A stretch of DNA of 58,139 nt, filler included, from Platydemus manokwari (GCA_037951405.1; 5 parts of 5 records of this genome joined end to end with filler, not necessarily neighbours in it), one strand, 5' to 3'; shown: positions 1,046 to 57,206, counted from the whole stretch's first letter. A program made the numbers and translations. Notes: generated by a model from the letters alone, not told the origin.

Positions 1046-1642
1046 ATTATGTGATTATTTAACTCTTTGTGAACACTATTTGGTCTTTATGAACTGTTTT
1101 TACTAACTTGAAATTTCAATACATTCAATTGCCTTTGTAACGCCATACTGCGTGATTTAATATTATCAAATCTAATTGTGTTCAAATTATTGTTAATCAA
1201 CTGTATAAATAGAAATGATCACAATGTCAGGAAACTAATCGAGTACTTCTTAAATTTAAAACTCAATATTTTGAAAATGCTATTAATTTCTGAGGTTAAT
1301 TAGATTTGTTTTCGTAACAAGCTTTTGATTGAAGGATATTCTTGGTTTTTTAATATCAAATAAAAGACTTAATTTATTAATTTGGTTTAAATAATCATTG
1401 TAGGATGATTTTTCCAAATTTTATAAAGAAGCCCAATTATAATGAAATTACGAAAAATTATTTCAAACCTGACAGATTTGTTTAAATTCTGCCTAAAACT
1501 AAGTGCAAATTTAAATAATTTTTTTATCAAAGAATTTTTTTCGGCCTTACTTAGTAACTATAATTATTAAATCGATTCTTCTGACAAGAAATTTTCATTC
1601 GTAAATCGAATTGTTTTTTCATTATTTAGACGGCTGAATTAT

Positions 1643-4638
1643 ATGAGTTCAATATGGTATGAATATCTAGAAGAAACGGGCGGTGAAATCATACCATTAA
1701 GTTATTTTAAACATGTTTGCCGAAGCTTGGAAAAAAATCATGATTTTGAATCAATTGTGAATTGTTCTAAAAGTGAAATCCGCTTTGCTTATAATTATGA
1801 CAATGAATTCTGGTGGCCAGTGATAATTTCAGAACAATTGAGTGAAGGTTGGATAAAAATTGACTATTTTGGAATCGAATCCAGTGATAATTATTTATGG
1901 TGTGATTTAAAAACGAATAGAAATTTTATAAAATCCATCCGTTGGTGTCTAGAACGAAATAGTATTTTCAAATCACCACAAAGCGAATGTGAAATTAATA
2001 TTGATGCAATTTTAGAAGAAAATAGAGAAAAGGAAGATTTGAAATTGGAATATATTTACAAGAATAATTATGCTTATCAAACTATCAAGATAGGAGCTTA
2101 TTTAGAATGTTGGCTGGAGAATAGCGTAGGATTTGTTTGGCCGGTGAAGGTTTTGTCGAATGTTGGTGGTCGATTGAAAATGACATGGTTTGGTTGTGAT
2201 TCAACTAGCAATTCCAAACAAAATTCATCTGGAACGAACAATATGTTTTCAATGTTCTACTTAGATTATCGACTTCACAGCTTGGGTTGGGCAAGACTCA
2301 ATGGCTGGAAATATTCTCCGCCTTTGAATGTTGGAATTAATATTTCGATTTCTAATGTCGATACGTTCGTCAGAGGTAGTCCGAGTGCGTTTGCGATGGA
2401 TTTAAGTTGCGATAGAGAGATAAAGGAACATTTTTTTGAGGAAGGCTGGCAGATAGAGGCCGTCAATCCAATTGATCCCAGCAAAATTCATGTGGCAACG
2501 ATTCGATATGTGTTGAATAAGAAATATTTTCTTGTAGAGCTAGAAAAGGAGAACAAAGATAAAGCGATTAATATCACCAGCAACGACAACGATTCTGTCA
2601 TGTTCGCCGGATTCGGAGGTATGGCTGAGATTTTGCCCGCTAATACGTCAAGTATAAGTGGTTACTCATTAATTGGTCTCCATGGCAACACGTGGGATGA
2701 CCATTTAATGTCAAACTCTCCCCAAAAGTACGCACCGCATCTTGGGTATTTTCAAAATGGTGGCGGTGTCGATGGACATCAGGAAAACGTTTTCCTTCCG
2801 GGATGCAAGCTGGAAGCCGTCAATCCATATAATAAACAACAAATACACGCTGCAACGATTATTCGCGCAATGGAAGGCAGTCGGCTCGTATGGATAAGAC
2901 TAGATAGCGAGACTGATATGGGCGATTTTCTCGTCGATCCAGTGACAAGCACGGATATATTTCCTGTTGGTTGGTGTGAAATGGTTGGTCACCAGCTCAT
3001 TATGCCAACATCTTATTTGTCACACAATACCACGATATCTCCTGCTCCGTTCGATAATGACGATATCACGATATATTTTCATCCTCAATGTTTTCTGGGA
3101 CCATTCTTGAGCCGATCTATTGCCAGTGAAATATTGCCTCAATTTATCGGGCCCGGCCATTGTTTACCAGTTTTTAGGCAGCTTTTTCATCTTCTTCTCA
3201 AGGTAAATTGCATGTGTGTGTTTTATATATTGGTATTGGTGTCGATACTTTTTGATATATTGAATTTGGTGTTGATTATTATTGATATATTGGTATTGGT
3301 ATCGATATTTATTGATATATTGGTATTTCTGTCGATACTTATTGATATTGGTGTCGATATTTATTGATATTGGTATCGATACTTATTGATATTGGTGTCG
3401 ATATTTATTGATATATTGGTGTTGATACTTATCGATATATTGGTATTGGTATCGATACTTATTGATGTGTTGATATTAGTGTCGATTGCTATTGATATAT
3501 TGGTATTAGTATCGATATTTATTAATATATTGGTATTGGTAACGATACTTATTGATATATGAATATTGGTATCGATACTTGTTCATATTGATATTTAATG
3601 TTTTCGATTTTCACTCTTAACAAAATATCGTGTTCGCAGGTATCCCATAAACCCTACAAATTGATGCGTCTCCTACAGTTAGATCCATCTGATGACAGAC
3701 ATGAGCTTATGGCCACGATTGTGGTGCCTTGTCCGAAAAGCGAATGGGGCAATCGCAATAAACGATCGAATTGGCTAGTCGAGGTTGCAGTTCGCAAGCG
3801 AGCAATTGCTGGATTCTGCCGACAAACCGCGCTTTCTCTCGGTGCCTGTCCATCATTTATCAGCATTTATCCGCAACCAAATTGCCATCTCGCCTGTGAC
3901 GCTCGCATGGCAGCTAGAGCCGGTGAAAAAATGAGCCAACAGAGGAGAAAGCGATTGTTTCTCCGTCCACTGACATCGTTGGGTATTTCGTATCGTGAAC
4001 TGAAATCTCGTGTTGTGGGTGCCACTAGCAACAGTAGCAGCAATTCTGAGCTCGATTCAAGTGATAGAGAGGATCATCCGTCGGAACAGATCAAAACAGC
4101 TGCAGTTGAATCACGAATGTGCACCCGAGGGATGCGACTCGTCGTTTCCGATTCTCGCCGTAGAGCATCGAAAAGGCGAACACTCGGGTCAAATCTGAAA
4201 TTTGTCAAGGAATCCAAGTGCGATTCGCTGAAAATCGATGAAGACACTTTAGGAACATCAGATGGTTTAAGGCGAGAAAATCGCGGTCGAGATACTGTTA
4301 CCGAATCGATTATTGATGTGCGCGATTACGTGATAGACCCGACATTTCTGGCAGGTGACATCGAACGAGTTACGCTATCGTCAAATCCTCTCAACTGGAC
4401 CGTCGAGCAATTGACGGAATACTTGTCCGGTACTGATTGTCGTCAGCTTATCACCTGGCTCGCTAATGAAAAAGTCGATGGGCGGGCATTCTTGTTGTTG
4501 ACGCTCCCTGTTTTGAGCACGTTGTACGGTTTGCAGCTTGAAGTGGCGATTCGTTTGTGCAGGCATGTCGTGTCATTGAAGCGAGTGTTTGTCGAACAAT
4601 TCGCCGACATGCAGGAGTTGTTGCCAGATGATATCTGA
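1643..4638 (+). CDS. SFMBT: Scm-like with four MBT domains protein (MBT repeats + SLED + C-terminal SAM); join(1643..3202,3640..4638), ~852 aa
   Basis: MBT signatures (LHSLGWA, WQIEAVNPIDPSKIHVATI, KLEAVNP..HAATI..DIFPVGWC). SLED-like CFLGPFLS..LPQFIGPG. SAM NPLNWTVEQL..KVDGRAFLLL. Phase-0 intron aag|gtaaat (3203) to cgcag| (3639) joins the two long ORFs in frame (LLLK|VSHKP). Confidence 0.9.
3222..3596 (+). repeat. Intronic minisatellite, degenerate ~21-30 bp units (attgatatattggtattggtatcgatactt)
   Basis: Directly visible tandem units. They generate the spurious hydrophobic tail of ORF 1643..3367. Confidence 0.9.
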
Positions 4639-20234: not shown

Positions 20235-21241
20235 TTACAATCCAATTCCAGTTAAGTGAGCATCGATTTGTTTCAATTTCGGCAACAAAATTCGAACTTT
20301 TCTACGATAATTTGGATCTTCTTTTGTTCGATCTGCCGAATACCAAATAGGGTTTCGCTCGAAATAAACAGTGGACAATTTTTCTAAATTAACTAATTCA
20401 TCAATATCATTCCAATTTGACATGTTATTATCATTGAACCAGAACTCTTCAAGGACTTTCAGGTGGGACAGGTTCTCCAGTTTTGAAATACGATTAGCAG
20501 ATAAATCCAAAGTGGTCAACTTGAATAAATTGTCAAGATTTTCAATTTTAGAAATGCCATTATGGCTGAGATAGAGCTGTTCCAAATTGATCAGACCATC
20601 AAGACCTTCAATTTTGACGATTCTGTTTCCTTGCATACTCAGAAGAGTTAAATTAGTTAAATAATTTAAATTCTCTATTTTGGAAATTTTGTTCTTTCCA
20701 ATATACAATTGATTGAGATTTATTAAAGTGTCAAGATTTTGTATTTTTCGAATACCATTTGAACCGAGCTCTAACATGTCGATATTGATAAGAGTGTCAA
20801 GATTCTCAATTGTTTGAAGTTGATTGTTTACGAAATATAATTTCTTCAAATTTATCAGCATTTCAATGTTTTCGATTTTTTTTATTCGATTGAAACTTAA
20901 ATCTAATATTATCAGATTAGTCAAACTTTGTAAATTTTCAATTTTGGTTATCTGATTATCGTATAAATCCAATTCTTCCAGTGTATGAGCAACGGGTTCA
21001 AGATTTTCAATTATTTTAATCAAATTATTTCTCAAACAGATAGACTTAGCCTGAAAAAGTTATTTATAGTTTTTGTTTTAAAATTAATTTTAAAATTTAC
21101 TCTGACTAATTGTTCCAAATTTTCAATCTTTTCTAAACGTGCATGATTAAAATCAATTATTTCTGCTTGTGGATCTATAGATAATATTTCGACGTTTTCA
21201 TCTGAAATCACAGATTCACCAATTCCATTTTCGTCTGTCAT
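20235..21241 (-). CDS. PPP1R7: Protein phosphatase 1 regulatory subunit 7 (sds22), LRR protein; complement join(21241..21101,21050..20235), 318 aa
   Basis: SDS22-class LRRs (LEELDLYDNQITKIENL, LELGSNGIRKI, LSMQGNRIVKIEGL, LYLSHNGI) and LRR cap (TVYFERNPI..NYRRKV..LPKLKQIDA). A 50-nt phase-0 GT-AG intron (21100-21051) joins EQLVR|AKSICLRNN. Confidence 0.95.
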
Positions 21242-22006: not shown

Positions 22007-24826
22007 AAATCTAAATGTTTTATTGCAATAAATAACTTTTATTTTATTAATGTATTTGTCGATCGTTTTAGAAGAATTTTTCATAATAATTAAATTCGTT
22101 TTAAATATCTGAAAAAATTGAAAAAACGAATCTCATAATAAAATTCAATTTTCGACTCAATCGTTTTTGAGCAATTATGTAAGGACATTAATAGGATTCA
22201 GGGTAGAAAAAGGAAAAAATATGAAATCACAATTTGATTGCTTCCATGGAAGATTATGAAAAAACATATATGAAGTATAAAATATAAAAAAAAACGAAAT
22301 ATGTTTTTAACAATAATAGGAGAATTTTGTATTGATTTTTCTTTTTTGTATTATTCAGCTAACATTTTAAAAAAAATTATTATTTGTCTCGAGAAATTAC
22401 ATGTCGACTAATAATCAGGGTCTTAAAAGGCATTTCTTTCGGTAAAATGGATTAATACAGTATAATGTATTATTGTATTAACGATAAGATGTTTATTTTA
22501 GAGTATTGTGCACAACATTCTATAAAACAAATCATGGATTATCATGTTTATCATGATTTTAATTTCTTTCTATCAAATATCGTTTATTTGTTAATTGCTT
22601 AATCTTACGAGAAATTGAACAACCTATTACTGTTAAAAAATGAAAATTATGAACAATATTTTCAAAAGATATAGATAATATATAGATACCGTAATATTCA
22701 AAGCAATCGGTGCCAATTCTAGGCAATTTTATAATATCTACTTTCAATTGATTATAAAAAATTTCAAAATAAATTCCAATACCATTGTTTGTATGGAACT
22801 GTTAAATCATCAATACATAACCTGGTACCAAAGAATAATCTTCCCCATATCATTTCATAAAAAGACTAACACCTACAAAATTGTTGCCAAACACATACTG
22901 ACATCTTGAATTCGTCAATACGCACTGCATAATTTCAAATTACTTTCAATCATATTCAGTATCTCGAGTATTTAAGATGATATTTTTCAGTGCCAATACC
23001 CATCTTTTACAATCAATCCTACTAATCCATTCATTGGGAATATGTGAATAGACATTAGAGTATCCGAGTATACTGTGGAAAGTGCTCTCCAAAAACGATT
23101 CCAGTAACCTATTCCACAAAAAATAAATATATCATTTCTAGTCTATTGACATAAATTATATCTAATCGATATAAATTTATCGATTAAAATATAAATTAAA
23201 ATAAAAAATATTTAAATTTTTATTTTGCATTTCATTTATTGATGAATTTATTATCTTTGTTTTTTACTTTTATTGATCACTTTACGTGTTGAAAGTGCTT
23301 AGTTCAATAAATTTTTGATTTTTTAGCATTTTCTAAAAGCGGTAGTAACGATGTTATTATTCACCGATATTATTAATATTTTCAATTTCCATAATTTCAG
23401 TTCTTGTCATCAGTGTGATAGAAAAGAAAATATCAATCAATAATCCTATCAAATATGAGCAAGTCAACGATAATATTTTGATAAATTATTATTATTATCA
23501 AACCGTGCTGTGAATAAAGTAAAACATAATTAAAATCGTATCACTATACAATACTAAATTATAACTCAGAACTGGATCAGAACCAGAAAGTCAAATACAA
23601 GCCAATCAAAAAGGCAGGCGGTCGGACAAAATCACACAAAGTCAAAGTACAGAATACAGGTTGCCAACCAAAAGACTGGCAGTTATTGTCAAAAATAGGC
23701 TCTTCGTAATATTCATACACACGTTATGACATTGATTCATTTAAACAAATCGTTTTAGAATATTCTATTAGTTTTATTTTTTGATTTTAGCAAATTATTA
23801 ATGATTTTCTTTTAGAATATTTCTAAAAATATTTATTTTTCTAAGGTTTATATTTACATACTTTACATGTATATTTGTATACAAGTGAAAAAATTGACAA
23901 TCTTTTCCGAAAGAGGATTCTTTTTATTCACTCTATTAAGCATGTTCTTTGTGTTTTATCAACTTTTGTTTTAATTCGGAACTCTAATTAAAACTAATTA
24001 TCATATTTTATTGAATTTTCGAGTTCAATTAGATGATAAATCATAATTAAATCACCCGCTTTTTTATTTAAAAAGATTTTCAAGAGATTTTATGGATTTG
24101 ATTATTTTCTAGATTTCTAACGATAAACCCGAAATAATCTTTGAGTTATTTTTTATGATTGTTGAAGAACAGTTCGTCTAAGTTAGTTTATATTACCGAA
24201 TTGACTTGTATCTATTTCTCTACCGGATAATAATTGAGAAAATGAAGAAGAACACTAAGACAAGAACACTAATAAGCATTCAGGAGAACTTATATTTTAA
24301 GTGAGTATTGTTAGGGATATTCTGATTTAGAAAGAGTTTTTGATAGATTAAAATAGCCGTTGTTTAGTATAACATGACGCATTTGAAGTCCTATATGTTA
24401 CCAATGAATAGAAAGGTTTGTAATTGAATTTAAACTTAAATAAGCCTTACAGTTATCTCAAGCTTTATATTTAAATTGATTAAAAAATATCATCCTGTCT
24501 TTAACAATTGTTCTTTTTCGTCAGAAAGAATACAGAAAACGATGGTCTTTGTAATTTTATAAACAATTATCAATAAAGCGATTGATTTCAAAGAGAAAAT
24601 ATTGATAATGAAGATCTCATGAAATACGTTCGATAATTAATATTTATAAGAATTATAATGATTGAGCTATTAGAAATTGAGGAAACGAATTAATTAAATT
24701 AAAAGCAACTAATTGAAGTCATTGCTTCCTGAGCATTGTTTCCAAATTGACGTTTATTCATTATATTATATTTTTATGTAAATTGATTTAAATAAAAAAA
24801 CTCCACCATAGATTTTATTGTGAAAT

Positions 24827-26015
24827 TCAAAATATTAATTTAAAAAAATTATGTTTCAATCCTTCTTTGGCAGTGATTCTAATCGTTGGGTTGGTAACAA
24901 GCATTTTCTTAATCTAAATGAAAATTTAATTCTTACTGACAGTTTTTAATAAAACATTTACCAAATCCAAAGCGTCCGGTGAAATATTTTTCCAATGGTC
25001 AGCGACAATTGGAAAAATTCCGGTCACGATGTTCTTATATAAAGCTGAGTCATTTTTAAATGGCGGATATCCAGTAAATAGAATGTACATGGTGACACCA
25101 GAAGACCACATGTCTGCAGATGTACTGGGTAAAGGCAATGATCTATTTTTGTAACGAGCAATCATCTCTGGAGGTAAATACAAAGGTGAACCACGAATAA
25201 CTGGAAATGGAAATTAAATTATTATGAAATATCAATAAACAAATATTACATGATCTCCGTTCAATGTCAGTATCGTAAACAGCGAATTCAAAGTCAATAA
25301 GCTTTATGTTGCATTCATCGTCCAATAAGATATTTTCCAATTTTATATCCAAATGCGTTAAATTTCTTTCATGAATAAACACTAAAGCTTGGAAAATTTG
25401 ATTCATAAATTTTCTGATGATTCGTTCAGAAATTTTACCAGTATTGGTTAAGAAGTTAAGCAGATCCCCTTTTGAATAACTGAATTCGAAATCAAAAATA
25501 GATTTAAAATGTACTACATTCAAGACTTACTAATCCTGGACAATCATTATATTCTTATCCGTCTCATAATAATCGTAAACATCGATTATGTATGGGCAAT
25601 TAGCACAACTTTTCAAGATTTCAAATTCATTTTTAGCATTAGCTTTTATTTCATCGGCTTTGGCACAATTCTCCAGTACATATGATTTCACTAGGAATGG
25701 TTTCTACAAATTATTGTTTATTAATTTACTTATATTTTTATCTTTGAATTATTATATCATTATTAGCAAAATTAATCTAGAGTTGAGTCATAATAATAGT
25801 GTTTTACTTACTTGATTTTTAATTTTATGGCAAATGTAAAGCACATTAAATTGTTTTTCTGTAATGATATCTGATATAATGTATTTCTTATGAAATTTAG
25901 CTTTCGAGTTGAAGATTCCTTTTATTTTCTTCAAATTCTCCATTCGTTTTAAATTGATGTAATTAATATGCTTTGGTTTAAGGAAATATTTTTCATTTAT
26001 AGAGATTAATGACAT
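24827..26015 (-). CDS. Divergent CAMK-group Ser/Thr kinase; exons 26015-25812, 25703-25531, 25479-25250, 25200-24962, 24913-24827 (~310 aa)
   Basis: Four GT-AG introns (108, 51, 49, 48 nt) give one uninterrupted 933-nt frame: FLVK, NEFEIL, HLDIKLENILL, IKLIDFEFA, GSPLYLPPE, DMWSSGV, GYPPF, ISPDALDL|IKKMLVTNPTIRITAKEGLKHNFF. Start codon uncertain. Confidence 0.85.
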
Positions 26016-26487
26016 AATATCAAGAAAATGTTACGGAATTTTCATTTCCCGTTCTAATGGTGAGTTAATATTTTATGGTCACACTTAAGTTATTTAAATC
26101 AATTTCATAGTTTTCCCTGATTGTTTTAGTTCATTGATTTTTTGACTTTTAACTAGGTTAAATTTGTAAAGTGTGAAGTTTTATAATGATCCGATATCGC
26201 TGAGTGATTTTTATGTTAAATTCAACTGATGGAATGCTGTTCTCTAGATATTTTTGCAATATAACATTAAACCAAATATCAGAGAAGCAAGACCATGATT
26301 CAAAAAATTGAAATCAATAATTTGAATAAAGATAATTTGGTTTAAATCCATGGAAGAGATGTGAAGTACAGAATAAAGACGGTTGTTATTATTTGTAATT
26401 TTATTTTTAATTATTCAGAATTTAATTTAATTTATTTTATCCGAGAAACATTTCAACTCATGTTCCTCATATTTGCAACATAATTAC

Positions 26488-26514
26488 TGTCACAAATGGT
26501 GACGAAAGTGATGA
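26488..26514 (+). promoter_or_regulatory. Putative LTR 3' end (TGTCACA) and primer-binding site (TGGTGAC...)
   Basis: tgtcaca-aa-TGGTGACgaaagtgat upstream of gag, with AATAAA and T-rich U5-like sequence before it. Only a partial match to a tRNA-Trp-type PBS. Confidence 0.4.
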
Positions 26515-27229
26515 GGAAGAGCACATACCAAAATAGTAAATACCTATAGAGAATAAAGGTCGAATACCAAAATAGAAATATCAAAAAGAAACATGAAATA
26601 ACCCTAACGACACATGTCCTGGAACAAGATAAACGTGAAAGAGAAAAAGGCTCAAGAAACAAAGGGAAAAAATAGATTTCAGTAAAAAGAAGGTTCCAAG
26701 CAAAAATATATACCCAAGATTTAAACCAAGAAGTAAAACACATTGGTAAATGGACAAATAGACTGCAAATCTGAACAGCTGAAGGAGAATCAATTCAATC
26801 TCAAAAGCAAGAAAACGTTGAAAAATTTGATATATTAAATAATTTTACTTTTGGGCAGGTAATATCGACTTCATACGTGTAACTGATGTCCTTTAGAAAA
26901 ACAATAATTCTGTAATAGTTATATGGAAGAAGTTTAAGTGAAGAAAGAACCATACAAGACAAGGAAGAACGGAAATCGTTTTATTTTAATGAAATTATCA
27001 TAAGTCAAATTTCGAAATTATGATGAATTCGTCCAAAAAGGTTGTGTATTGATTATTGTGGTGGTATATTAATTAATATACGCTATATTGGAGTCAGGAG
27101 GTTTGTTATTCATTATTATTCAATAATTGTTTAGTGAGCCCTCATTCGAACACTTTTACGATTATGTTTTCAGAGGACCAGGATTCAGAGAACCAGTCTT
27201 CTTCAGGTCAACAGTCAATTCAACACTAG

Positions 27230-27955
27230 ATACGACTGGTTCCGCAAGCAAGTTTTGCTGGTTGCCAAAAGCTTCCTGTCGAACAGTACGCTGGAGACCC
27301 AGTTGACTTCGTGGATTTTATGATTGATTATTTTATGTATGCATCCGCATACGTTTGGTCTTAAAAGGATGATGATCCAAAGAGTTTCTCTTTATTTAAA
27401 AGACACAGAAAGAGAAGCCTACAATTAAATCGACAGACGAAACATTGCCCAACGCACAGGAATGAAAGACGCCTTATCAGAGAAGCTAATCAGTGGTGAC
27501 GTTGGTCGCATTATCCGTCAAAAATTCTTCTCCAGATTGCAGAAAACAGGTGAAAGTGCAGGCTATTTTGAGTACCATCTATCAACACCTGCGGAAAAGA
27601 CATTCGGACCGAAAGCGGAGTGGCCAGCACAAACGCGAAAAGTGGTCAGGATCAATTTTTGAAAGGAGTGCATTAATACATTAGTACAGCGCTCAGCCTC
27701 GTCGATTATACCACCTACGGTGAACTCATCAAAAAAGCTATGATGGTGGAAATGAACTCCAAATCGATAATTCACCAGCCTGTCACATATGCCACAGAAA
27801 CAGATCTCTCTTTTATGGGTAAAATTGAAAGGCCATCACCCACGAAATCTATCGACAATACTTATCCAAAATCCACTCGATAATTCACAAAATTATGTCA
27901 ATCGTCAGTCAGCGACTCTCCAAAGAAGCTGCAAGGGGTGACGTGCTTTAAATAC
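27230..27955 (+). pseudogene. Ty3/Gypsy gag remnant
   Basis: EQYAGDPVDFVDFMIDYFMYASAYVWS..IRQKFFSRLQKTGESAGYFEYHLSTPAEKTF..FLKG. The RxQxxGES motif is typical of retrotransposon gag. Ends at the start of a Zn knuckle (GVTCFKY). Confidence 0.75.
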
Positions 27956-27959
27956 AATC

Positions 27960-28945
27960 GAAATGACGATTATGACAATAGTGATGAGAATTTTGATGAT
28001 GATGAGAGTAATATAAAATTTAGGAGTTGGAAAATAAAAGTGGAGACTTGTATGATACGTTTTGAGAAAAAAGTTTGGAATAAGGTGAGGAACAGCTGTA
28101 TAATTTCTAATTTATGCGGAATTGAAAATGAATTATGTTCGTTTATGTCGTCGTAGCTTTTGAGGAGTAGGTCACTTAATTAATTATTTGTGAAGGTAAT
28201 GACGGAAATGTTATATTTTATAGCAGTGTCTTATAAAGGAAAAAATTTTGAGATTTTTTTTGAAAATCGGGTAAGAAATTTGATTAAAGTAAAGCTAGAT
28301 TCTTTTTCAAGAGTTCGAGATATTAGAAGCCAAATTGTTGGAGGAGATGCCCCACTTACGTTTTTGAATCAAATTCTACGTGATGATGATTATGTGATGT
28401 ATAGGAGAATGGAGGAACTCTGCAGAAATGTTATCGCAGGTGACTACGCCTTTAAAGGAAGAGCCATTGAATTTTAGCGAAATAGTGAAAATTTTGGAAA
28501 TTATCAAGAAAAATATATCAATGTTTCGTAATTTGAGTGAGTTAATATATTTGTTAGTACTGTATATCGAACAATTTTTACCTATTAATTCTACTTTCAG
28601 AAGTATTTTTACATTATGTGGGAAAATGTGAAAAAGGAAAGTTTAAATCCACCTCTGTTTGAGATCAGTTTGATGAAATCAGGAGTTGAAATGGGGAATT
28701 TCAAAGAGCATTGGTGTACAAAGGCAAAGAGAATCTTAAGAGAGATTTCAGAAAAGTTGAGAAATGAAGTAGTTATTATCTTATCATATTGTAGTCAAAA
28801 TTTAGATGATGAATATTTGTTGAATTACAAATGTGTTACTGAAAAAGCACATAAAATTAACGTTGCAGTTCATTACGAGCAAGGCATTATTAATGAGAAC
28901 GTAGATTATGAACGAGCCAATTTGCATAAAAATGATTTTACATAG
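27960..28945 (+). pseudogene. Unknown ~320-codon decayed ORF (ORF X) between gag and glycoprotein
   Basis: ORFs 27938-28156 and 28190-28477 share a frame and chain by frameshifts into 28428-28631 and 28616-28945. No motif recognised. Confidence 0.55.
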
Positions 28946-29137
28946 GACATTTAAGAGGCAGGATTTAACTTGTCACTTCATCAAGATTTTGATACTTCTA
29001 ATATTAATCATAATCATACAGACATTGTTATTTAAAAGAAAAACATGGAATTTAATGAAATTAAACTAATTAATAATAAAAATTGAATATATTTTATGAA
29101 ATCAAAAAATAGGAAAAGTAAAATATTAAGAAGTGGA

Positions 29138-30900
29138 ATGTTGTCTTTAAACTTTTGGAGCAAAGCCCTAATTTTTATGATGATAATAATATTCGGCATC
29201 GTTTGCGTACCATTGCTCTAAAGCAGATATGGGAAAAATTCATTGATTGATTGAACGGAATGACCAGAAGTATATCTGATCAAAATCTCTAGTGGTGAAA
29301 ATGAGCATTATTTTTTATATCAGGAATCGAATTTTATTAGAGTGCAAGTAAACGAATGCGTCTTTAAGAAGACAACTTTTGTTTTTCACTGTGCTGATCA
29401 TGATGAAGGCGATCTCCAGGCCATTAGAGATAGACACTGACAACTGCGAATCCGCTTTTCAAACTGAAAAAACAAAAATAGACACTAAAATTAAATTATC
29501 AGAAAAAAGAGGTTATATCATGAGGGAATCCATTGTAGTTAGAGGATCCGTAGAAGCAGATGGAGAATGTAAGGGAGAACCAGATAATTTTTCTGGACAA
29601 ATTGTTGATAAATCTGTAGTAATTTAGGAATATTCCGTCGAAATAAGACAATGGGAAAGCGTATTTGATGAACTGAATAGAGAAATGCAAACTCATCCAT
29701 TATGTAACTCAAAACACAAAAGTTGTCAAACCGGTGAGTCAGTATTAGTATATAACGAAAGGTCACAAGACTGTAATTTGGTATTTTTAAAAGAAACTAA
29801 TTTAATGGAAGTTAAGGGTGAACAAGTAAATGAAGTTATTGACAACTTACCTTCCGATCGAACACCTAAGGGCAAAATAAGGCCTTTCCAGTAAAACCGA
29901 AACGAACCCCAACTCTTTTGATATCAACTTTGACTGAAGACGGAATGTGCTTTATCAGAATAGATAGTGGCAAAACGTGGTAAATTTGTGTATCAGAACA
30001 ACTATAAAGGATTATATGTATCGAAAACAAAACTAGAAAGTGCTAAAGAAAAAGTCTATAACGGTGATATATAATTAGCACAATATTTTAATAATAATTT
30101 AGACTATACTTTTCATTTCGGACAAAATACAGTTGCTAATATATATCAAGAAGTTATATTAAACGATTGCAAACTAAACCGAGAAATTTTTCGCAATAGA
30201 ATGGCGATTGTGTAAACAAATCCAAGTGCAGCAGCGCTTATGCTGGTTGCCGAAAATGGAATATTTGGTTGCGTTTTAGGTGAGGCACTATATAGCTACA
30301 AATGCAAAGCAATCTAAGTCCAAATAATGAAACACGAGACTTGCACATACGAACTTCCAATCAATGTCGAAGGAAAACTACATTTTATGGAACCGACAAC
30401 TCGAATCATCTTAGAAGAAGGAACAAAACGAAAGAATTTAGAATACAAACCTATTTTAGCACCGATATACAGAATAACGACCGATCAATGGATTGCGCTG
30501 CCAAATAGAAATATAGTTAGAACTAAATTGAAATATTTAATAAATTTTACAGCTCTAAATAATTTAGCTGCTACTGGAATGTATTCACCGTAGAACTTGG
30601 AGGAAGTCAGACGTAACCTACTTTTCCCTTCAAATAGAGAACGAGTAATAACAGAATTAGTTAATACTATTCTACCAAAGAGAAGCCGTCAAGCCAATTA
30701 TGAATACTTGCTAGGCGTATATAACAATATAACATTGTAGGCAGTTTGTAGAAATTAATTTTAGGACGTATTCCATTCTTAGCTAAATTTTTTATAATCA
30801 ATCATCGATATGAAGAAATGAATAATATAAAATCTGAAATGAGAAATAAAAGGAAAGTAAGATTTAGTGCATCTTCGATTTCAGAAGACACTATCATATG
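29138..30900 (+). pseudogene. Chuvirus (Jingchuvirales)-type envelope glycoprotein, near full length, pseudogenised
   Basis: Colinear motifs: signal-like MLSLNFWSKALIFMMIIIFGI, AYHCS, VQVNECVFKKTTFVFHCADH, RGSVEADGECKG, IYQEVILNDCKLNREIFRN, GEALYSYKC, CTYELPI..FMEPTTRII..GT..PILAPIYR..W, LAATGMYSP*NLEEVRRNLLFPSNRERV. Confidence 0.82.
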
Positions 30901-31399
30901 ATGAAAATAATGATTTTAACGCAAGGGACGATAAAAATATTATCACAAATTCAGACATATCGGTACCAAATTGGGAAGATTAACGAACCTTATTAAAATC
31001 AGAGCGTTTACAAAAGGAAAACAAATCACATTTTAATGAATTCCTGCCGGTAATATCTGAATGAAAAAAATTAATTAAGAAATTTCGATTTTTCTTTCTC
31101 TTACGGTGACATTAGAACAATAATAATAATAAATAAATAAATAAAATTAATCAAACTTAATTCCACTACGAGCAATGAGAATCAGTGGACTGCTCGATGA
31201 AAATTAATTTGGATTTAAAGTTTCTTTTATTATGTTCAATGCCAGAGAATGTCAGATTTATAAATGGTAAAATATGAATTAAAAATATATTGAATATTAA
31301 GCTCGTATTTCAGTATCAAAAAAATTTGTTGAAAAATGTATTATTAATATATACAACAAATAGAAGTAAAGAAGGAAGACGGCAACAGGGAGAGAAAGG

Positions 31400-33880
31400 A
31401 TTGACAAATGTATCAAACTGCATATAGTAGCCAACGTAAAAAAATTGATTGTAACGGTACAGATTGAAATGTTATGGGATTCTGGTGCATCGATAACAGT
31501 AATGAATGAGGCCAATTGGAGACCCGCAGATTAAAAATTCGGATGTTCGATTAGCTGGGTATTCTCCAATACACACAAATCCTGTCTAGGAAAATGAGGA
31601 TCCCAATAGTTTGGAACAACAAAATTCTAGTAAAGGAGATCATTGTATTAAAAGAAATATCATCAGGATTTATCGGAGGAGTTGATATGATGAAGACTTG
31701 CGGAATAGTCCTTGCGGGGATAAAATCAATTGATGCCGAGGATATGGGAAAGAAATACTGCGAACAAGACAGAATCGAAATGGCACTGAAGAGTATTGCT
31801 GATAAAAACGATATTTCATTGAATAAATGTATAAAAGAAAATGGCTCAATTTTTATGGTTTCTCGGTTCGATTTGGGACTAACAGATTTGGTGAAGCACG
31901 AGATCCGTACAAAATGGTAACCTATTGCTTAAAATCCCAGAATGCAGTCAATAAATTTAGAAACCAAAATTCATGAATTGATAGAAAATCTTCTTGAAAG
32001 AAATGTCATAACACCTTGAAAGAGCCCTTAGAACTCTCCTTCGGTCGTGGTTCCTAAGATGGATCGATCAGGCTGTTTAGACTTCAGAAAGTTAAACGAA
32101 CAGACTGAGGAGTATTCTTTTCCAGTACCTGATATCCACACGTTATTGGACTCAGTGTATGGAGCGACAGTTTTCACCACGATAGATTTAGGCCAAGCAA
32201 ATTATCAGGTCGAACTTGAGGAAGATTTTAAAATGAAAATGGCGTTCAGCACTAGAACTGGGCAGTCCTGTTTTAACAGACTACCTGTTGGATTATGTAC
32301 CGCGCCAGAAAGTTTTCAGTGTCTAATGAATACTATATTCAAGGACTTGATTTACAAGGGAGTTCTGGTTTATCTGGACGATATTTTAGTGTATGGAAGA
32401 ACGGTAAAGGAACACAATGAGAAACTTGAAAAGGTATTCAGGTTGAATAAATCACCAGGTTTGAAAATCAATCCCGAGAAATGTATTTTTGGCACTAGAA
32501 AATTGAATTCCCTGGGTCATACGGTCAGTGCAGATGATATAAACTAATGACAACAAAGTAAAAAAGATTAAGGAAGCAATTAGACCTGGTTGCATTACTC
32601 AGTTGAGGTCGTTCCTAAGATTATGCAATTATTACAGAAAATTTATCAAGGATTAGGCATTAATTACGGCTCTGTTATATGCAATGATGACTGGAAGTGA
32701 CAAGAAATTGGAGTGGACTACAGAGTGAGGAAAGTTTTGCAAACCTTAAGGAGCTATTATGCACTGCTCCAATTTTGGCCTTTCCGAATCCAGACATCGA
32801 CGCTGGTTTCGGAGTGATTGGGGGCCTTCTAATCCAGGTGGATGACAATGAAAAAGAGAGAGTAGTAGCCTTTGGTTCTAGAACTCTTAACAGTCACGAA
32901 AAAGAGCTTTTGTCAATCCACGAGTTCACTATGCATTTTAAACATTATCTATTGGGAAAGAAATTTGTGACTCGCACCGATCACAGAGCCTTGACATCCA
33001 TGAAGAAAACTAACAAACCGATTAACCTTCAATTTTAAACATGGTTTGTAAACTTATCCGGATACAGTTTCGAACTTCAATTTATTACAGCCCTGTTATA
33101 TGCAATGATGACTGGAAGTGACAAGAAATTGGAGTGGACTACAGAGTGTGAGGAAAGCTTTGTAAACCTAAAGGAACAATTATGCACAACTCCAATTTTG
33201 GCTTTCCCAGATCCAAACAAAGAGATTATTTTAGATACCGACACTTGTTTTGGAGCGATTGGGGGTGTTCTAAGCCAGTTGAATGATAGTGGAAATGAGA
33301 GAGTATTAGCGTATGCTTCTAGAACTCTTAACAGTCATGAAAAAGTATTTGTGTCACGATGAAAGAGCTTTTGGCAATTCATGAGTTCATTATGCATTTT
33401 AAAGGATCAGACTTTCAAGGATATGCAAAACATTTTGTTCACAGTGCTTAATTCAGAACCAAGATGCTAAAGAAGGTAAACCATTGAGTCGATTTATTAA
33501 TGTTGTCGATCATTCAATTGCACATAATGACGAATTAAGGAATATTTAACTAAAGGATACTGTCGTTAGTTCTATTCTAAAATGGTTACAGAAAACAGAA
33601 ACATGAGTCAATTTAGCGGTCAGATAAACAGTTTAGAGAAATACCAATTGTTAGAATATATGATGTTGTATAATGAGAATTGTAAGAATTGAATTGTTGT
33701 CCCAGAGATTCATTCGAAGAATATAACGAGATACCTTCATGAGTAGTTGTGCCATATCGGTAATAAGAAATTGGACGATTACATTCAAAAGATTTACTTC
33801 TGGACAAATATGTCACGAAGCATTGAACACGAGGTACGGAATTGTGATATTTGTACTAAACGGAAAGTATACACTAGACG
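31400..33880 (+). mobile_element. Ty3/Gypsy pol remnant (PR-RT-RNaseH-INT N-terminus), frameshifted, RNase H region duplicated
   Basis: Protease LWDSGASITV. RT LDFRKLNE, FNRLPVGL, YLDDILVYG. RNase H ILDTDTCFGAIGGVLSQ and TRTDHRAL. Integrase Zn region IVVP..LHE..HIG..CDIC. Domain order is Gypsy/BEL type and the motifs are Gypsy-like. Confidence 0.92.
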
Positions 33881-34149
33881 GTAATTGGACACTATGAATT
33901 AATTCCAATAGAGAAAATAATGGGGATTGAATACGAGGAGACAATTCTAAATGGAATAATAATGGGAAAGTGACTGGAATCCCAATGATAATGATTAAGC
34001 ATATCAAAATAGCAAGAGACGAAGGAACGATAGAAACAATTGGAATAACAGTGAATATAAGAACAACATACCAAATTAGAGAAAAGAAGTCTCATCGAGA
34101 AAAGTTAAAAGAGTTGGGGTTTTGAAAAAATCAAATGTTAAAAATCCAA

Positions 34150-34959
34150 TGTGACAATAACCCGGATATATCGAATCCATACTGTATATTTTGTGTATGT
34201 CATTTTTTGTTATTTGAGTATGATATTATGATCAAAAGCTCGTATTTGTATTTATGTACAAAAGTAGCAATTTTTATTTTAATAATATTCATTATTCTGA
34301 AAAGTCTTTAATGGTTATTTATAGCTAAAAGTAAAAGAATAAAACAATAATAAAGAAAAAGAAATAAAATAAAAACTATTGCAAGAGACAAAATTTTATT
34401 TAAAATAAGTTCCTAGTAACTAATAAATTACCCGCATTAAATGTCAAAAATTCACCCTAACAATTTCCACACAATGAAAGTCCTTATGTCAAAGTTAATG
34501 ACCCGCTTTAAAAAATCCTTTGAAATAAAATAATAAGACCTGCATTTTAATGGAAATTAGATCTGAATAAAATCAGTATAAATAGGTTCATAACATCAGT
34601 AGCATTGCTCCATTATTAGAAACCACTAGTGATAGTGCGTTGTTATACGACGACGAAACATTCAAGTTACCAGCCGTGAAAGCCAGTCAGATTCTCGCCA
34701 ATATTCTCAGAAGTGGATACCAAGTTGACATTCTATTCTGAAAAATCATAGCCCAAAATAGGAGAAGTAACAGTAAGATCGATAACTGTAAAATCACACA
34801 TTATTTATAATAACCGCATATTCTCCCTATTTATCGGGTTAATCCCAACCATCTTGAACAATCGGTTTTACTTCTCTTGTGAGCATTATAACCTGAGCTT
34901 TTTCCAGAATAAGAGAGAAGAATTAAAACCGCATTAGGGCTTCAAAATAGATTGTCATA
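34150..34959 (+). repeat. LTR-like segment (TGTGACA...TGTCATA) with internal TATA-like gtataaatagg
   Basis: Starts with the reverse complement of the 26488 terminus and lies 3' of pol. No clear identity to the 5' LTR candidate was seen. Confidence 0.3.
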
Positions 34960-35592
34960 GATAAAGAAAACAAAATACACAACATCATTTTTTAAATTTA
35001 TAAATTATTATTAAAAATTATTTTTCAAGAGGGAATCATTTTGTTTTAATGTTTGCTTTTTATTTTTTTATAATTAGATGATTTTTAAAATATATTAATT
35101 TAAAAAATTTAGAATGATCAAAGGAATTTTATTTTATTATAATTATTTTAGATCAATTATTTTAATAAACTATTATGAAGAGGATTATCTGAAGAGACAA
35201 GAATTACAAATTTCAAAATATGTTGCTAATAATAAAAGACAAATTTATTCTTCCGTTAAAATTACAGGAACGTGAACATTTTTGCCAGGAAGTGATCAAC
35301 GCGAACCAAGTTTTTAATAGAAATTTTATGGAAGAAATTAAAATGGTAAAACATAAAATAAAAGAAAATATGAGAAAAAAATTAAAGAAAACTATTAAAA
35401 AGGAAGAAGTTGAGAAATATTTAAAGACATGATTCAAAATCGTAGTGATATGGATGAAGAGATTTATTATGAAAATTCAAAGACAATTGAAAATATAATT
35501 TCTAGTTTAGAAACAGCCATAATCAGGGAGAAACGATTAGAAATAAAATGTTAAAAATAAAATATACATTAGAAGCCTTCTAAATAAATTAA

Positions 35593-35692
35593 NNNNNNNN
35601 NNNNNNNNNNNNNNNNNNNNNNNNNNNNNNNNNNNNTTAATTAATTAANNNNNNNNNNNNNNNNNNNNNNNNNNNNNNNNNNNNNNNNNNNN
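35593..35692. other. Assembly gap with artificial linker
   Basis: N44-TTAATTAATTAA-N44. Confidence 0.97.
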
Positions 35693-42184: not shown

Positions 42185-42959
42185 CCGTAATCACCCATGT
42201 ATAATGCCCCCCTACTTTTAAATTTAAAAACTGGTCTTTTTGACATACCCAAGCATAACGCTCCCCTAAGTTTTCAAATTTTTCTGCTAAAAAATTAATA
42301 TTTTTTGTGAATAAAATTTTATTTCAGACAATTACATTTTCTGCAATTCAATCAGAATCATTACTATCACTAAAAAGTTCATGAAACTCTTCCGGAGTCA
42401 GTCTTGCGTCTGTATCCTAGTTAGGGTCAACTTGGTCTTCATCTTCTTCATTTTCTTCGTTTGGGTCTTCTTTTCAGAGTTCATCATCTTCTGTGCCATC
42501 AAAATTGTTTGAGATTCCAGTCTTTAGGAATCCCTTAACAACCATCTGTGATGGAATATCATCCCAGGCTTCTGTGACCCAAGTAGAGACTAGAGACAAG
42601 CTAGGTTTCTTGAAGTTTCCATTTTTGGTCTGTTCTTGCTGGCCAGAGGCCATCCAATCCATCCATTTTTGCCTCATTCTGTCCTTGAATGGTTTGTTCA
42701 GAACGACATCCAGCGGCTGCAGGATAGATGTCAAGCCACCAGGAATCACTGCTTGGGTGGTGTTGAGAGAAGTACATTTTCTCTTTACTTTGTCAGTTAT
42801 ATGTGCTCTGAACTGATCACACACTAAAATTGATTTCTTCAAGAGAGCTCCGGGCTTTCTATTCCTATATACTTCTACATACTCAAGTATAATACTCCCC
42901 CCATTTAAAATGTTGAAATTTCAGACGAAAATGGGAGTATTATACTTGGGTGATTACGG
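42185..42959 (-). mobile_element. Internally deleted pogo-family transposon with both TIRs, TA TSDs and C-terminal DDE_1 fragment (42474-42842)
   Basis: TA|ccgtaatcacccatgtataatgcccc ... gggagtattatacttgggtgattacgg|TA. Protein LVCDQFRAH..VIPGGLTSILQPLDVVLNKPFK..GFLKTGISNNFDGTEDD. Confidence 0.93.
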
Positions 42960-48500: not shown

Positions 48501-49564
48501 TGATAGAAGAATAAATTCAACCATTTGAGCTATATATATATATATATATATTGAAGGTCATTTTGATGGTTTCGATAATTTTGACAGATTCATCACATAC
48601 TCCAGAGAATTCTGCATGTCATCAGATTATAATTTAAAGAAAATTTTGAATGGATAAAAGCTTTTTTCTTTAAGCATATAAATTCCACCAATTCTATTCC
48701 AATGTTATAATTCACTGTATATCATTAATTACTTAATTTTCAAACTCAACGCACTAAAGTTACAAAATTTTATATTTAAAAGTTATTATAAAATAAAAAA
48801 ATGTTTATTTACCTTCTTTTTCTAATTTTACCAGCATATTATTTTCAGCAAATTACGAGTTATACAATAATTAATTTTTTAAACACAAGTCAGTTATTAT
48901 GTAAGCGCTCGAATTAGTTAAAGTCCGCTTTGATCTCTTTTGCAACATAACATCATTTCTTTTTTGGTCAAAACTATACAAAATTATACAAACAAATCTG
49001 CAACATATAAACCAATTATTGAAAAGTTCAATTGATTTACAATACTAATTTAATAAGAATATTGGGAAAATGTATAATTTGGATGAAAGGGAATTCATCA
49101 GAATTAGTAAAAAAATAAATAAAAATCTTGGAATCCTATCGCAATATATTTTAATTTTGATTCCTATTATCTGCAAATTCATAGTTAAAACAATAAAAGA
49201 AATAAAAGTCATCAACGACACATCAGCTTGCAGAAAAGCCATGAATTCGGGATTCTGGACAGAAGAAATGAAACCATTTGAATATTGGTATATATTAATA
49301 CTAATTTATAATTATTTTATAATTAGAAATGTGTTTTAAACTATGTTGTATGTATTTTTTCATCAAACTTATTTAGTAATACTAAAGAATTATTAAAATT
49401 TAATAATCATGTCAGTAATGAGTAAAAAAATATTAAATATGGCAAACTTTTGCTATCGACGGAAAGTAAAATTGAATCTTTAAATTAAAATTTTTTGTTA
49501 TGCGACATTGTTAACTTATGACTTCGTATAAAACATTATATACATAATTTATTTGTAATTCTAG

Positions 49565-54299: not shown

Positions 54300-54850
54300 A
54301 TCTTAGCTATTCAATTCTTCAAGATTTTGGCTGTCCCTAAAAATCAAGAAGCGCTTGATGTGGGCTTAAAAATGTCAAAATTCCATGAGGACCTTCATAA
54401 CGATCTCCATTCTTCTTTTTATTGTGTGGTTCTTTCTTCACTGAAACTTCTTCTCCAACCTCGAAAATTCTAGGACCTTTTTTTTTACCATCGAATTTCC
54501 TAAAGTTTGTGGCTACTGATTTTTGCTGATTTTTCGTTTCTTTGATGACCTGGTCGTGGTTTTAGTCATTATTTGTCCACCATTAGCAACATCAATAACA
54601 ATTTGTTCCAGAGGACCAAACTCTTCCCTTGGAATCATAATTTCTTTAGTTCGTCCAGTGTATACCTTCCGTTTAGCATAAATATCACTATCCCGTATCT
54701 CATGTTCGATGTTACGTGACATATTTGACTTAAGTAAATCTTTTGAATGCAATTGACCAATTTATTATTACCAATATGGTAAAACTCCTCATTAAGATAT
54801 CTCGTTAGTTTCTGTGAATGAACATCTGGCACAACAATTCGCTTCTGCTG
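54300..54850 (-). mobile_element. Gypsy integrase remnant (Zn-binding region + GPY/F tail, core deleted), same family as the 33.7-kb copy
   Basis: KRIVVPDVHSQKLTRYLNEEFYHIGN..GPLEQIVIDVA, then DRYEGPHGI. A purine tract follows. Clear nucleotide similarity to 33690-33880. Confidence 0.88.
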
Positions 54851-55255
54851 AGAAAACATAGAACGACTAGTGCTCTACTCAGACAGTGAGGAGAGCGAAG
54901 AAGAGAAAACCCCATTCACCATTAACTCTTATAGTAAATGAAGTCAAAAGGTAGCTGAAGAGAAGACTCAACAACAACAACAGCAACCACCTCAAGAATC
55001 CGTGTTCAAAAAACCAAGAACACCCCCTATAAGACAACGAAAACCCGCAACACCAATTTCCATCATACTCGTAAAACCAAACCCAAAATGGGAAACTTGG
55101 GCCACCCAAAACTGGTGTGTAGATTTGGATGCCTGATGTCTACAAGAATTCAAACTGTAATCTGCGACAAACCCGACAATTCGGCAATCTAATTACTACA
55201 ATTCAGACAAATTCCAAAGATGATTTGATAAACGATTTTATAATATGATTCTTTT
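54846..55255 (+). pseudogene. Copy 3 of the RLVLYSDSEESE ORF family
   Basis: C*ENIERLVLYSDSEESEEEKTPFTINSYSK*..KWETWA. Confidence 0.7.
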
Positions 55256-56177
55256 GAACATTTCAATATTTAATGATGACTTGATCTGATAAATGATAAT
55301 CTGACTCTTTCGAACATTGTATTTTTTGATTGTATATTGTAAATAACTGTAATATTGTTATGTAACATTTTATGATATGAATTATGTGAAAAATAAATGA
55401 TATTAAAATACTTGGATGGAAAATATTAATAAAATATATATATATGAAATAAAAAAACACATATTATTATTTATAAAGGAATAAGGCGACAAGTAAAAAT
55501 AAATATAATATTTAATTGTAAATGTTAATTATTTTCTAATAAAGTTTTTAAGGTTAAATAATTTAATTTAAAATTTAAGTTCAAGAACTTTTGAAAATAT
55601 AAACATTTAGAGTTTAAAGTAAAATAATGGTTAAAATTTTGTAAAAGTGATGGAAAATCCTAGGTACAAAGTACCGAATCTCAGCATTTATATAAGCTGA
55701 TGGATTTCATTACAATTCACTCTTAAAAATTTGGTAATTAGAAATTGATGCGAATCACTAAAGTGAAGCAGCCCCTAACATTTTTGGAACAAACTTCTGA
55801 AACTATAAAATTATTTTGGTAAAGCTTAAATAGTATCTATATAGCTTGACAATAAAATCAATATTTAAAATCTTACACTTGATTTAACTCTGAAGAAACC
55901 AGCTTCGGAGTTATATTATAAAATATATATTAAAGAATAATAAGGAGCAATGGTCGAGTTCTCACGATCTCAGTGAGATAACCATACCAAATTGTTATTT
56001 TGAGTTAAACTGATTGAGCCAATTTTATTGAAAATTTGTTTTTATCAATTATAAATAAAATTTATAAAGAATTTGTGTGTTGTTGATTTATTTTGTATAT
56101 CCATAAAATAAAGGAACTCAAGCCGTTGAGTTGGTTAAAAACAAATAAACACCTCATACAACCCAACACGTTTATTC

Positions 56178-57206
56178 ATTCTCATTATACATCACCATAT
56201 CTTTAAACAACTCATATTTCTATAAACTGTTAAAATGTTTGCTTTTCTTGACCGCTGAATTGACTCGTTTCTGTTTCTGTAACCATTTTTGAATGGAACC
56301 CAAGACATTATTTTCTTGTTGAATCTTCCTTATTTAGTCATTATTTGCTATTGAATGTTCGACACCATTAATAAACCGACTTTTTGTTTTACCTTCTGGT
56401 GCTGAGTTAACTAATGTGAACAAAATGCTTCGCCTATCCTTGAGAGTCCATCTATAGTTTCAAGATCTGATCCCTTCTCATATTGAAGCTCGAAATTAAA
56501 TCCGGATAAGTTTGCGAACCATATTTGAAACTGAGGGCTAACTGGTTTGCTAGTTTTCTTTATGTATATGTGACAGTCACAAATTTCATTCGCAGTAGAT
56601 AATGCTTAAAATGCACAGTGAACTCGTGGATTGCCAAAACCTTTTTCATGACCGTTAGGAGTTCTAGAGCCATAGGCTACTACTCTCTTTTCCAGTATCA
56701 TACAACTGACTTAGAACGCCGCCAATCGCTCTAAAACTAGCGTCGGTATCTAAAATCATCTCTTTGTTTGGATCCGGAAAAGCCAAAATCGGAGCTGATC
56801 AAAATTGTTCTTTTAGGTTTCCAAAACTTTCTTCACACTCTGTAATCCACTCCAATTTCTTGTCACTTTCGTTCATCATCGCATATAACGAATCCGTAAT
56901 TAATACATTATCTTTGATAAATCGTCTGTAATAATTACATACTCCAAGGAACGACTTTAACTGAGCAATGTAACCGGGTTTTATTGCTTCCTTAATCTTT
57001 TTCACTTTGTAGTTATCAGTTTCTATATCTTCTGCATTAATATTATGACCGAGGAAATTCAATTTTCTTATTCCAATAGAACATTTTTCTAGATTGATTT
57101 TCAAACCTGATGATTTAATCAACCTGAAAACCTTGTCGAGTTTCTCATCGTGTTCCTCTACTGTTCTTCCATAAACGAAAATATCCTCCAGATCAGTGAT
57201 TTCCAA
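56178..57206 (-). mobile_element. Gypsy RT C-terminus, RNase H and linker remnant (second copy)
   Basis: LEDIFVYG..GLKINLEKC..FLGH..LKSFLGVCNYYRRFI..DTDASFRAIGGVLSQ. Homologous to 32370-33680. Confidence 0.92.

Follow-up and report, generated by a model that had tools for sequence, protein, structure and literature searches.

The window analyzed here, a stretch of DNA of 58,139 nucleotides, contains on its plus strand, at 29165-30898, a decayed PF24664 fusion glycoprotein (chuviral-type, herpes gB-like class III). We consider it very probable that this is the dead env of a Burro-like GAG-ENV-POL Ty3/gypsy element in the genome of a flatworm, probably a free-living species such as a planarian. 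Judged from its sequence relationships, the relic is not the trace of a chuvirus infection. Its nearest relatives are Ty3/gypsy polyproteins and a gag remnant lies upstream of it, which agrees with the part of the original prediction that spoke of a retroelement-borne env. The prediction had also called the stretch a fossil chuviral glycoprotein. It is indeed a fossil of the PF24664 family, but it groups with retroelement polyproteins and not with chuvirus G, and the label "chuviral" is misleading. The features used in the argument are the following.

1571..4638, plus strand: SFMBT-like host gene with MBT repeats, SLED, and a weak SAM domain (Pfam E values of 6e-34, 8e-6, and 0.03, respectively)
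20235..21059, minus strand: PPP1R7/Sds22 host coding stretch, best matches in Paragonimus and Echinococcus
26926..26980, plus strand: integrase-tail fragment (55 nt) of a second Ty3/gypsy lineage, upstream of gag, 87% identical (E 1e-11) to 54453-54399
27272..27775, plus strand: gag (capsid) remnant of the env-bearing element, in two frames, found with a gag profile of four env-polyprotein relatives
27935..27975, plus strand: possible degenerate zinc knuckle, seen by eye in the translation
28277..28396, plus strand: possible first ubiquitin-like domain (5.0 bits, in the decoy range), suggested by its position and by two such domains in relative P0277
28428..28640, plus strand: possible helical domain before the ubiquitin-like domain, as in relatives (8.2 bits, decoys up to 9.2; colinear position)
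28712..28861, plus strand: putative ubiquitin-like domain remnant, C-terminal half (15.9 bits, iE 1.4e-3, with a relatives-only profile; best decoy, 10.1)
29165..29221, plus strand: hydrophobic segment before the ectodomain (Kyte-Doolittle peak, 2.84), an internal signal/TM1 in relatives
29193..30716, plus strand: env ectodomain pseudogene, PF24664, predicted class III gB-like fold (Pfam E 9e-38; phmmer E 2e-77 to polyproteins)
30716..30722, plus strand: deletion junction of about 50 codons with a frame switch, transmembrane (TM) anchor lost (profile positions 557-606 skipped)
30722..30898, plus strand: post-TM hydrophobic/basic tail (28.7 bits, iE 1.5e-7; decoys at most 7.2)
31445..33881, plus strand: Ty3/gypsy pol relic of another lineage, with protease, reverse transcriptase (RT), duplicated RNase H, and integrase zinc finger (Pfam)
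54301..57200, minus strand: second copy of this second-lineage pol, truncated at its 5' end (identity to the copy at 31445..33881, about 80%)

The env pseudogene

The env locus lies in a segment (22007-35592) that is bounded on both sides by gaps and ends at the gap at 35593. When 29352-30743 was translated in a single frame, with an X for each stop, the match to PF24664 (Monjiviricetes_fusion) reached 130 bits, compared to a curated cut-off of 27. A profile of 667 positions, built from nine intact relatives with the window excluded, was matched colinearly from position 44 to position 653 by pieces in alternating frames (29234-29401, 29385-29843, 29870-29968, 29964-30716, and 30722-30862). The piece at 29870-29968 is weak (6 to 8 bits), and the N-terminal piece scored 40.9 bits, against 7.8 for the best of 10 decoy windows. 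The broken open reading frames (ORFs) thus add up to one near full-length protein, as had been predicted. The ORF starts given at the time (ATG 29138, TTG 29379, ATG 29685, and ATG 30327) and the motifs LFPSNRER, LILGRIPFLAKFFII, and RNKRKVRF are all present, the latter in the translations, and no cellular protein competes with the env relatives as a better match.

The gene has at least eight stops and at least four frame switches, and about 50 codons, including the transmembrane anchor, have been lost. The stops in the matching frames are at 29252, 29261, 29625, 30072, 30213, 30315, 30591, and 30749, with an additional one at the 29961 junction, and the frame switches are found near 29390, 29850-29870, 29964, and 30716-30722. 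The gene probably switches frame twice more near 29190-29235, where the match is weak (9.8 bits). As the longest open piece is 91 codons, this copy cannot make the protein, and today it is neutral debris without a protein product. Eight of the 10 near-invariant cysteine columns are kept. Neither the env stretch nor the ORF at 28589-28942 gave a result in the protein Atlas, and the env profile found no second env in the window.

Both ends of the ectodomain deserve comment. The protein was said to begin with a signal peptide; a hydrophobic stretch is present at 29165, but a signal peptide of a free ORF is not clear, and in the relatives the equivalent peaks (e.g., at aa 368 in P0124 and aa 131 in P0126) are segments internal to a polyprotein. 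At the other end, the C-terminal anchor of PF24664/class III fusogens is missing from this copy and kept in the relatives. The suspected deletion of the main transmembrane segment is real, because the skipped profile positions are those that carry the transmembrane peak in the relatives; the match of P0132 to the window also breaks off at aa 372 and restarts at aa 425 across the junction. We regard this absence as loss by decay. The hydrophobic and basic tail noticed after the helix is homologous to the post-TM tail of the relatives.

An AlphaFold2 model of env, based on a 75-row alignment, had a pLDDT of 85.7 and a long central helix at 243-286. In Foldseek searches the model matched models of chu-like glycoproteins (E 3.5e-20), and every match listed from the PDB was a herpes gB (best E 3e-4). 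The comparison with gB of HSV-2 (VIA) gave a Z score of 7.2 with an rmsd of 6.8 over 218 aligned residues, which is modest on its own. TM-scores were low (0.2 to 0.46), so the domain arrangement differs from that of gB and the match rests mainly on the agreement across entries. Within these limits, the modeled env fold is gB-like.

Relatives of env and their organization

A word-indexed search with the X-read env retrieved only one match among 2,856 candidates (P0003, 47%), and an exhaustive search was needed. This gave 636 matches, 17 of them at E values of 1e-30 or lower. In 10 of these 17 a protease motif follows env in the same chain, and of the 14 scanned with Pfam, 9 were confirmed to have protease or RT. 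The other seven near matches consist of six fragments of at most 750 aa and P0136, which ends in env. Ty3/gypsy pol is present downstream of env in P0124, P0126, P0131, P0138, P0141, P0274, and P0277, and six of these (P0124, P0126, P0138, P0141, P0274, and P0277) have env-PR-RT-RNaseH-IN in one ORF. Several env-polyprotein relatives also have gag or zinc knuckles in front of env. The order in the relatives is that of a single-ORF Ty3/gypsy polyprotein, gag-(ubiquitin-like)-env-protease-RT-RNaseH-integrase, and the compact polyproteins with the gag-ubiquitin-like-env layout measure 2,100 to 3,200 aa. The best named chuvirus appeared at rank 26 with an E value of 7e-22, and the retroelement polyproteins outscored every named chuvirus by about 55 orders of magnitude.

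The env tree contained 44 rows: the window, the 17 near relatives, and 26 others picked from about 155 matches. The window pairs with P0003 (100/100) inside an 18-row clade of polyprotein relatives (100/100, stem 1.1) that excludes the 26 others, among them four named chuviruses, an Aethina (beetle) protein, and a BEL/Pao-linked protein. Because the tree is midpoint rooted, it gives no direction of transfer between virus and retroelement. One near relative is labeled a protein of a Flavobacteriaceae metagenome-assembled genome (MAG), which we infer to be a mis-binned eukaryotic contig. Two scans for the loci of intact relatives in bacterial and archaeal genome contigs gave 28 and 21 pattern matches, none of which was confirmed.

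The polyproteins vary in what they carry besides these domains. Tandem aspartic protease domains occur within single polyproteins (P0274, P0127, P0126, P0129, and P0139), with seven Pfam protease stretches in P0274 and four protease motifs behind env in P0127. The cargo in front of env also varies (P0138, aa 110-300; P0128, aa 9-70; P0142, aa 651-748), and the stretch in P0138 is one that we take, by eye, to be DEDD-exonuclease-like. Bcl-2 was matched weakly by P0128 (E 1e-3) and by P0142 (E 0.055), P0274 has an ankyrin match, and there are weak ubiquitin matches. Five relatives (P0124, P0126, P0277, P0274, and P0138) run 400 to 1,500 aa beyond integrase with extra hydrophobic peaks. The sequence of this region, a pair of segments resembling a signal and a TM, suggests a second C-terminal membrane protein; the region has no match in the window. 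The Burro account, as far as its description of the element goes, mentions no such protein (PMC6431247).

Gag and putative ubiquitin-like remnants upstream of env

Upstream of env, on the same strand, the gag profile matched 27375-27605 with 28.7 bits (iE 1e-7) and 27647-27775 with 18.0 bits, the best decoy being 6.9. The part at 27272-27370 (5.9 bits) is not significant alone. The same gag remnant was found by tblastn with P0130 (E 5e-6). Pfam gave nothing useful in 27200-28945.

Between gag and env, the domain at 28712-28861 is common to P0127, P0277, P0142, P0124, and P0136. A profile of two window and three relative segments, picked by eye, had only ubiquitin and UBL5 chains among its best 60 PDB matches, the best single-domain E value being 8e-5. 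A profile of relatives only gave a weak match to the ubiquitin-like domain of RAD23 (E 0.04 to 0.06). The fold model of the remnant is of low confidence (pLDDT 56), and nothing scored above a Z of 4.4, with no ubiquitin among the matches listed. With segments picked by eye and a fold model of low confidence, there is moderate support for calling this domain ubiquitin-like. Two of the three accessory matches (28277-28396 and 28428-28640) are within the decoy range, and the ORF of the first one alone found no ubiquitin in the PDB. The order of the remnants, gag, ubiquitin-like domain, and env, is that of the relatives.

The downstream pol belongs to another lineage

The pol relic at 31445-33881 is not the pol that once belonged to this env. 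Among five close relatives (P0124, P0126, P0131, P0274, and P0277), env identities of 34 to 44% accompany RT identities of 61 to 74%. Between the window and the same five proteins, env identity is 29 to 35% and RT identity only 36 to 41%. The window pol is nearest to pol-only proteins of about 1,020 aa (P0279-P0283; 47 to 51%, compared to 35 to 41% for env-polyprotein RTs), and in the RT tree it is placed among pol-only proteins (95/85; wider clade, 100/98). Forcing the window RT together with eight env-linked RTs was rejected (AU p 2.5e-7). These RT identities, the tree, and the AU result rule out this pol as env's own. The own pol and long terminal repeats (LTRs) of the env-bearing element are absent from 22007-35592. 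Within this segment, similarity between upstream and downstream flanks did not exceed that of shuffles in any of three comparisons for an LTR pair. The 55-nt repeat at 26926 was considered as an LTR and ruled out, as it is a piece of integrase tail that matches the integrase C terminus of the second pol copy.

The second-lineage pol has some peculiarities of its own. The RT-connection/RNase H region is tandemly duplicated (32659-32942 and 33080-33403, 76% identical overall). No match to the integrase core was found in 31445-33881, and both copies lack the integrase catalytic core (at 33881 and at 54585-54570 on the minus strand), the second copy jumping from the start of the core to a GPY/F-type integrase tail. 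This lineage is possibly a non-autonomous subfamily. About 1.3 kb of other sequence splits the second copy, which has no adjoining env.

The likeliest explanation for an env beside a foreign pol is a pile-up of dead elements: the downstream pol would come from a separate, unrelated Ty3/gypsy element and would have ended up next to env through nested insertions and deletions. Alternatively, it is possible, although we think it unlikely, that a Burro-like gag-ubiquitin-like-env block was grafted onto a distant env-less Ty3/gypsy pol and that the whole of 27.2 to 33.9 kb transposed as a single chimeric element. The arrangement fits such a chimera, since gag, env, and pol follow each other on the same strand in the expected order, the distance from the env tail to the protease, about 500 nt, is too short to hold a gag of the pol lineage itself, and neither a Burro-type pol nor a second gag is present. 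In addition, the distance between the integrase-tail piece of the second lineage and the gag downstream of it is about 290 nt, a placement that fits a tandem array. However, no LTRs were found, and none of the 120 listed relatives of the window pol has env in the same chain (proteins of 470 to 2,000 aa were searched, as proteins only, without DNA context). Moreover, the spacer between env and pol is A+T rich and carries a microsatellite. The density of stops per 100 aligned codons also differs, at 2.2 to 2.4 in env, a value raised by a stretch read in the wrong frame, and 1.1 to 1.3 in pol, although these are small counts. The second pol copy says nothing on the matter, because it is truncated at its 5' end. 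A literature search, with subscription papers mostly outside its reach, found no published case of env exchange among flatworm elements.

Was the glycoprotein acquired directly from a virus?

The original prediction read the locus as endogenization of G only, and one can imagine that the G mRNA of an exogenous jingchuvirus was endogenized directly and landed among retrotransposon debris. Membership in PF24664 would fit, and in the structural comparison with viral models, chu-like glycoproteins came out best. Flatworms do host jingchuviruses (PMC9241645), and insect Jingchuvirales endogenous viral elements (Jg-EVEs) beside fragmentary Gypsy elements have been interpreted in this way (PMC10084718). 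Against this stand the gap of about 55 orders of magnitude between the polyproteins and any named chuvirus and the 100/100 branch that parts the window from the four named chuviruses, in a tree without flatworm jingchuvirus G (none was identified among the 30 of 150 matches that were looked up). The post-TM tail matches the polyproteins, and the flanking gag and ubiquitin-like remnants match the same proteins as env does. Env does not stand alone but follows its own gag and ubiquitin-like remnants in what was the first half of a Ty3/gypsy element. No L or N gene was found among 22 stretches scanned against Pfam. This reading is largely refuted, and we give it very little probability.

Even less probable is a domesticated, secreted env without TM that serves the host, for instance as a receptor-blocking antiviral of the kind proposed for mosquito solo glycoproteins (PMC7642597), since the clean deletion of the TM and the 8 of 10 retained cysteines fit such a role but at least eight stops and four frame switches along the gene, with no open piece longer than 91 codons, would leave it a source of piRNAs at most.

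The host and the rest of the window

We carried out the proposed host check with PPP1R7. The best identities are 53 to 58%, to Paragonimus and Echinococcus, with no near match. In a tree of 31 rows, in which two flatworms were sampled, the window joins these two with support of 89/90 (unstarred). The C-terminal LTG[IV]GL tail is common to the window, Paragonimus, and Echinococcus and is missing in 8 other aligned rows. On the sequence of this one gene, with two flatworms sampled, the host is probably a flatworm. The GC content of the window (28.6%) is in line with the more than 70% AT of the Schmidtea genome (PMC11410931). This composition, together with the published env counts in flatworms given below, leads us to guess at a free-living triclad. 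It had been thought that the known host range of this glycoprotein family would be extended here if the host were not an arthropod. As PPP1R7 points to a flatworm host, and such env genes have been published in planarians and other flatworms, as have jingchuviruses, such an extension is not supported.

Other features of the window can be listed briefly. SFMBT and PPP1R7 have very long unbroken coding stretches, and the host looks intron poor; a 30-nt tandem array (3225-3588) lies between two long SFMBT ORFs. A protein kinase on the minus strand (24926-25526) is split between frames that overlap, one matching Pkinase at E 2e-17 and the other at E 6e-13, pointing to a short intron or a frameshift. 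There is a fragment of a DDE_1 (pogo/Tigger-type) transposase at 42474-42920 on the minus strand (Pfam E 5e-20) and a lysine-rich ORF of 315 codons at 49548-50495 on the plus strand, whose best family, DUF2851 (E 8e-4), is under the cut-off. The plus-strand ORF at 57822-58130 we take, by eye, to resemble the C-terminal part of a Polinton/Maverick-type DNA polymerase B, a likeness for which neither Pfam nor PHROGs gave confirmation. A small dispersed repeat occurs at 7-108, 655-712, and 54845-54946, with an inverted pair at 49-106/655-712, and the copy at 54845-54946 is at the edge of the 1.3-kb interruption in the second pol copy. At each of the four gaps (at 12167, 21907, 35593, and 45432), a 12-nt spacer of A and T only is flanked by two runs of 44 N, and several long "repeats" in the window are artifacts of these gaps. 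No tRNA and no Rfam match was found.

Comparison with known elements

Burro and GYPSM1 are giant Ty3/gypsy elements of dugesiid planarians (PMC6431247). As described in 2019, Burro has gag, a Ubi/SUMO-like domain, BCL2, and an in-frame env, followed by PR/pol; its env matches mononegavirus fusion proteins, and decaying fragments are found in Dugesia japonica (PMC6431247). Burro is derepressed in planarians under smedwi-2 RNAi (PMC8532177). The order of gag, ubiquitin/SUMO-like domain, and env is shared, as are the AT-rich flatworm host and an env akin to mononegavirus-type fusion proteins. In the intact relatives env also lies in frame before the protease; this continuity of env with gag and pol holds for the closest relatives, whereas in the window the frames are broken. 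The two differ in size, with about 3.7 kb from gag to the end of env here compared to an ORF near 5,000 aa in an element of more than 30 kb, and in content, since no MATH, BIR, BCL2, or ankyrin domain was detected by Pfam in the decayed window and the own pol and LTRs are missing. Going by the described layout, the locus resembles the 5' half of a Burro-type element in its build and presumed way of working. We file it as Burro-like and not as Burro proper, because it is far smaller and Burro is known here by its published description only.

A survey of 2026 reported GAG-ENV-POL errantiviruses with gB-type env in Platyhelminthes, Bryozoa, and Nematoda, including nine listed flatworm elements (six in Schmidtea, two in Prostheceraeus, and one in Macrostomum), and an ectodomain with two hydrophobic segments is among the layouts described (PMC13524379). 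For ENV-POL env genes, the first 30 of 55 flatworm rows, which are those considered here, show counts of 5 to 253 in the five free-living species and of 0 to 1 in the cestodes and monogeneans (PMC13524379). The window shares with these elements a gB-type env between the positions of gag and pol, but the survey deals with intact elements, whereas the copy studied here is dead and adjoins a pol of another lineage. The main text of the survey mentions neither Burro nor ubiquitin (PMC13524379), and four short env motifs were absent from its seven supplements.

Other carriers of this glycoprotein are more distant. Anakin is a BEL/Pao element with a chuvirus-like G (PMC7642597), and Jingchuvirales G EVEs are found in insects, Malacostraca, and Nematoda (PMC10084718). 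With these the window has in common a PF24664 glycoprotein and amplification of a retroelement-borne G without N or L (PMC7642597, PMC10084718). In Anakin, however, a BEL/Pao gag-pol lies upstream of G, whereas the window has flanks of Ty3/gypsy-type gag and pol with env before pol. The BEL-linked match P0171 (DUF5641) and the arthropod matches are on the other side of the 100/100 branch from the window. Jingchuviruses themselves have been reported in Neodermata (PMC9241645). Their glycoproteins (compared here: Tacheng tick virus 4, Wufeng shrew chuvirus 2, Hardyhead chuvirus, and Hubei diptera virus 11) are homologous class III fusogens with a common cysteine pattern, but they share 26 to 30% identity with the window env over aligned stretches, mostly in the central helix region, and form a separate clade. 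A Troyka LTR element was also considered and ruled out, as Troyka is described as a single Gag-Pol without an envelope protein (PMC12440569).

How the ancestral element may have worked, and what the locus means

By analogy with the intact relatives, the ancestor would have encoded one long polyprotein with env between the gag and accessory domains and the protease. Entry of the ectodomain into the endoplasmic reticulum (ER) would depend on the internal hydrophobic segment, and the TM would then halt translocation, which would place the fusogen on the luminal side and leave gag and pol in the cytosol. The protease or proteases of the element, together with signal peptidase, would then release a trimeric class III fusogen for the spread of particles from cell to cell, as in the general scheme of retroviral polyproteins and class III fusogens. 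The ubiquitin-like domain might serve, speculatively, as a processing or host-interference module.

Elements of the kind to which the env relic belongs have been described before, also from the group in which we place the host. The locus matters little as it stands, because it is one more dead copy. It does tie the architecture of Burro (PMC6431247) to the flatworm GAG-ENV-POL errantiviruses (PMC13524379), and the compact relatives show a layout shared with Burro. If the chimera were true, an infectivity module (env) would have been swapped between Ty3/gypsy lineages in a flatworm and then spread in tandem, contrary to published work that regards recombination between env and pol as rare. When PF24664 matches turn up in the genomes of animals, they are often counted as fossil chuviruses, from which the host range of chuviruses is then inferred. 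The match described here is the env of a retrotransposon, set apart by a long branch, and calls for caution in this practice.
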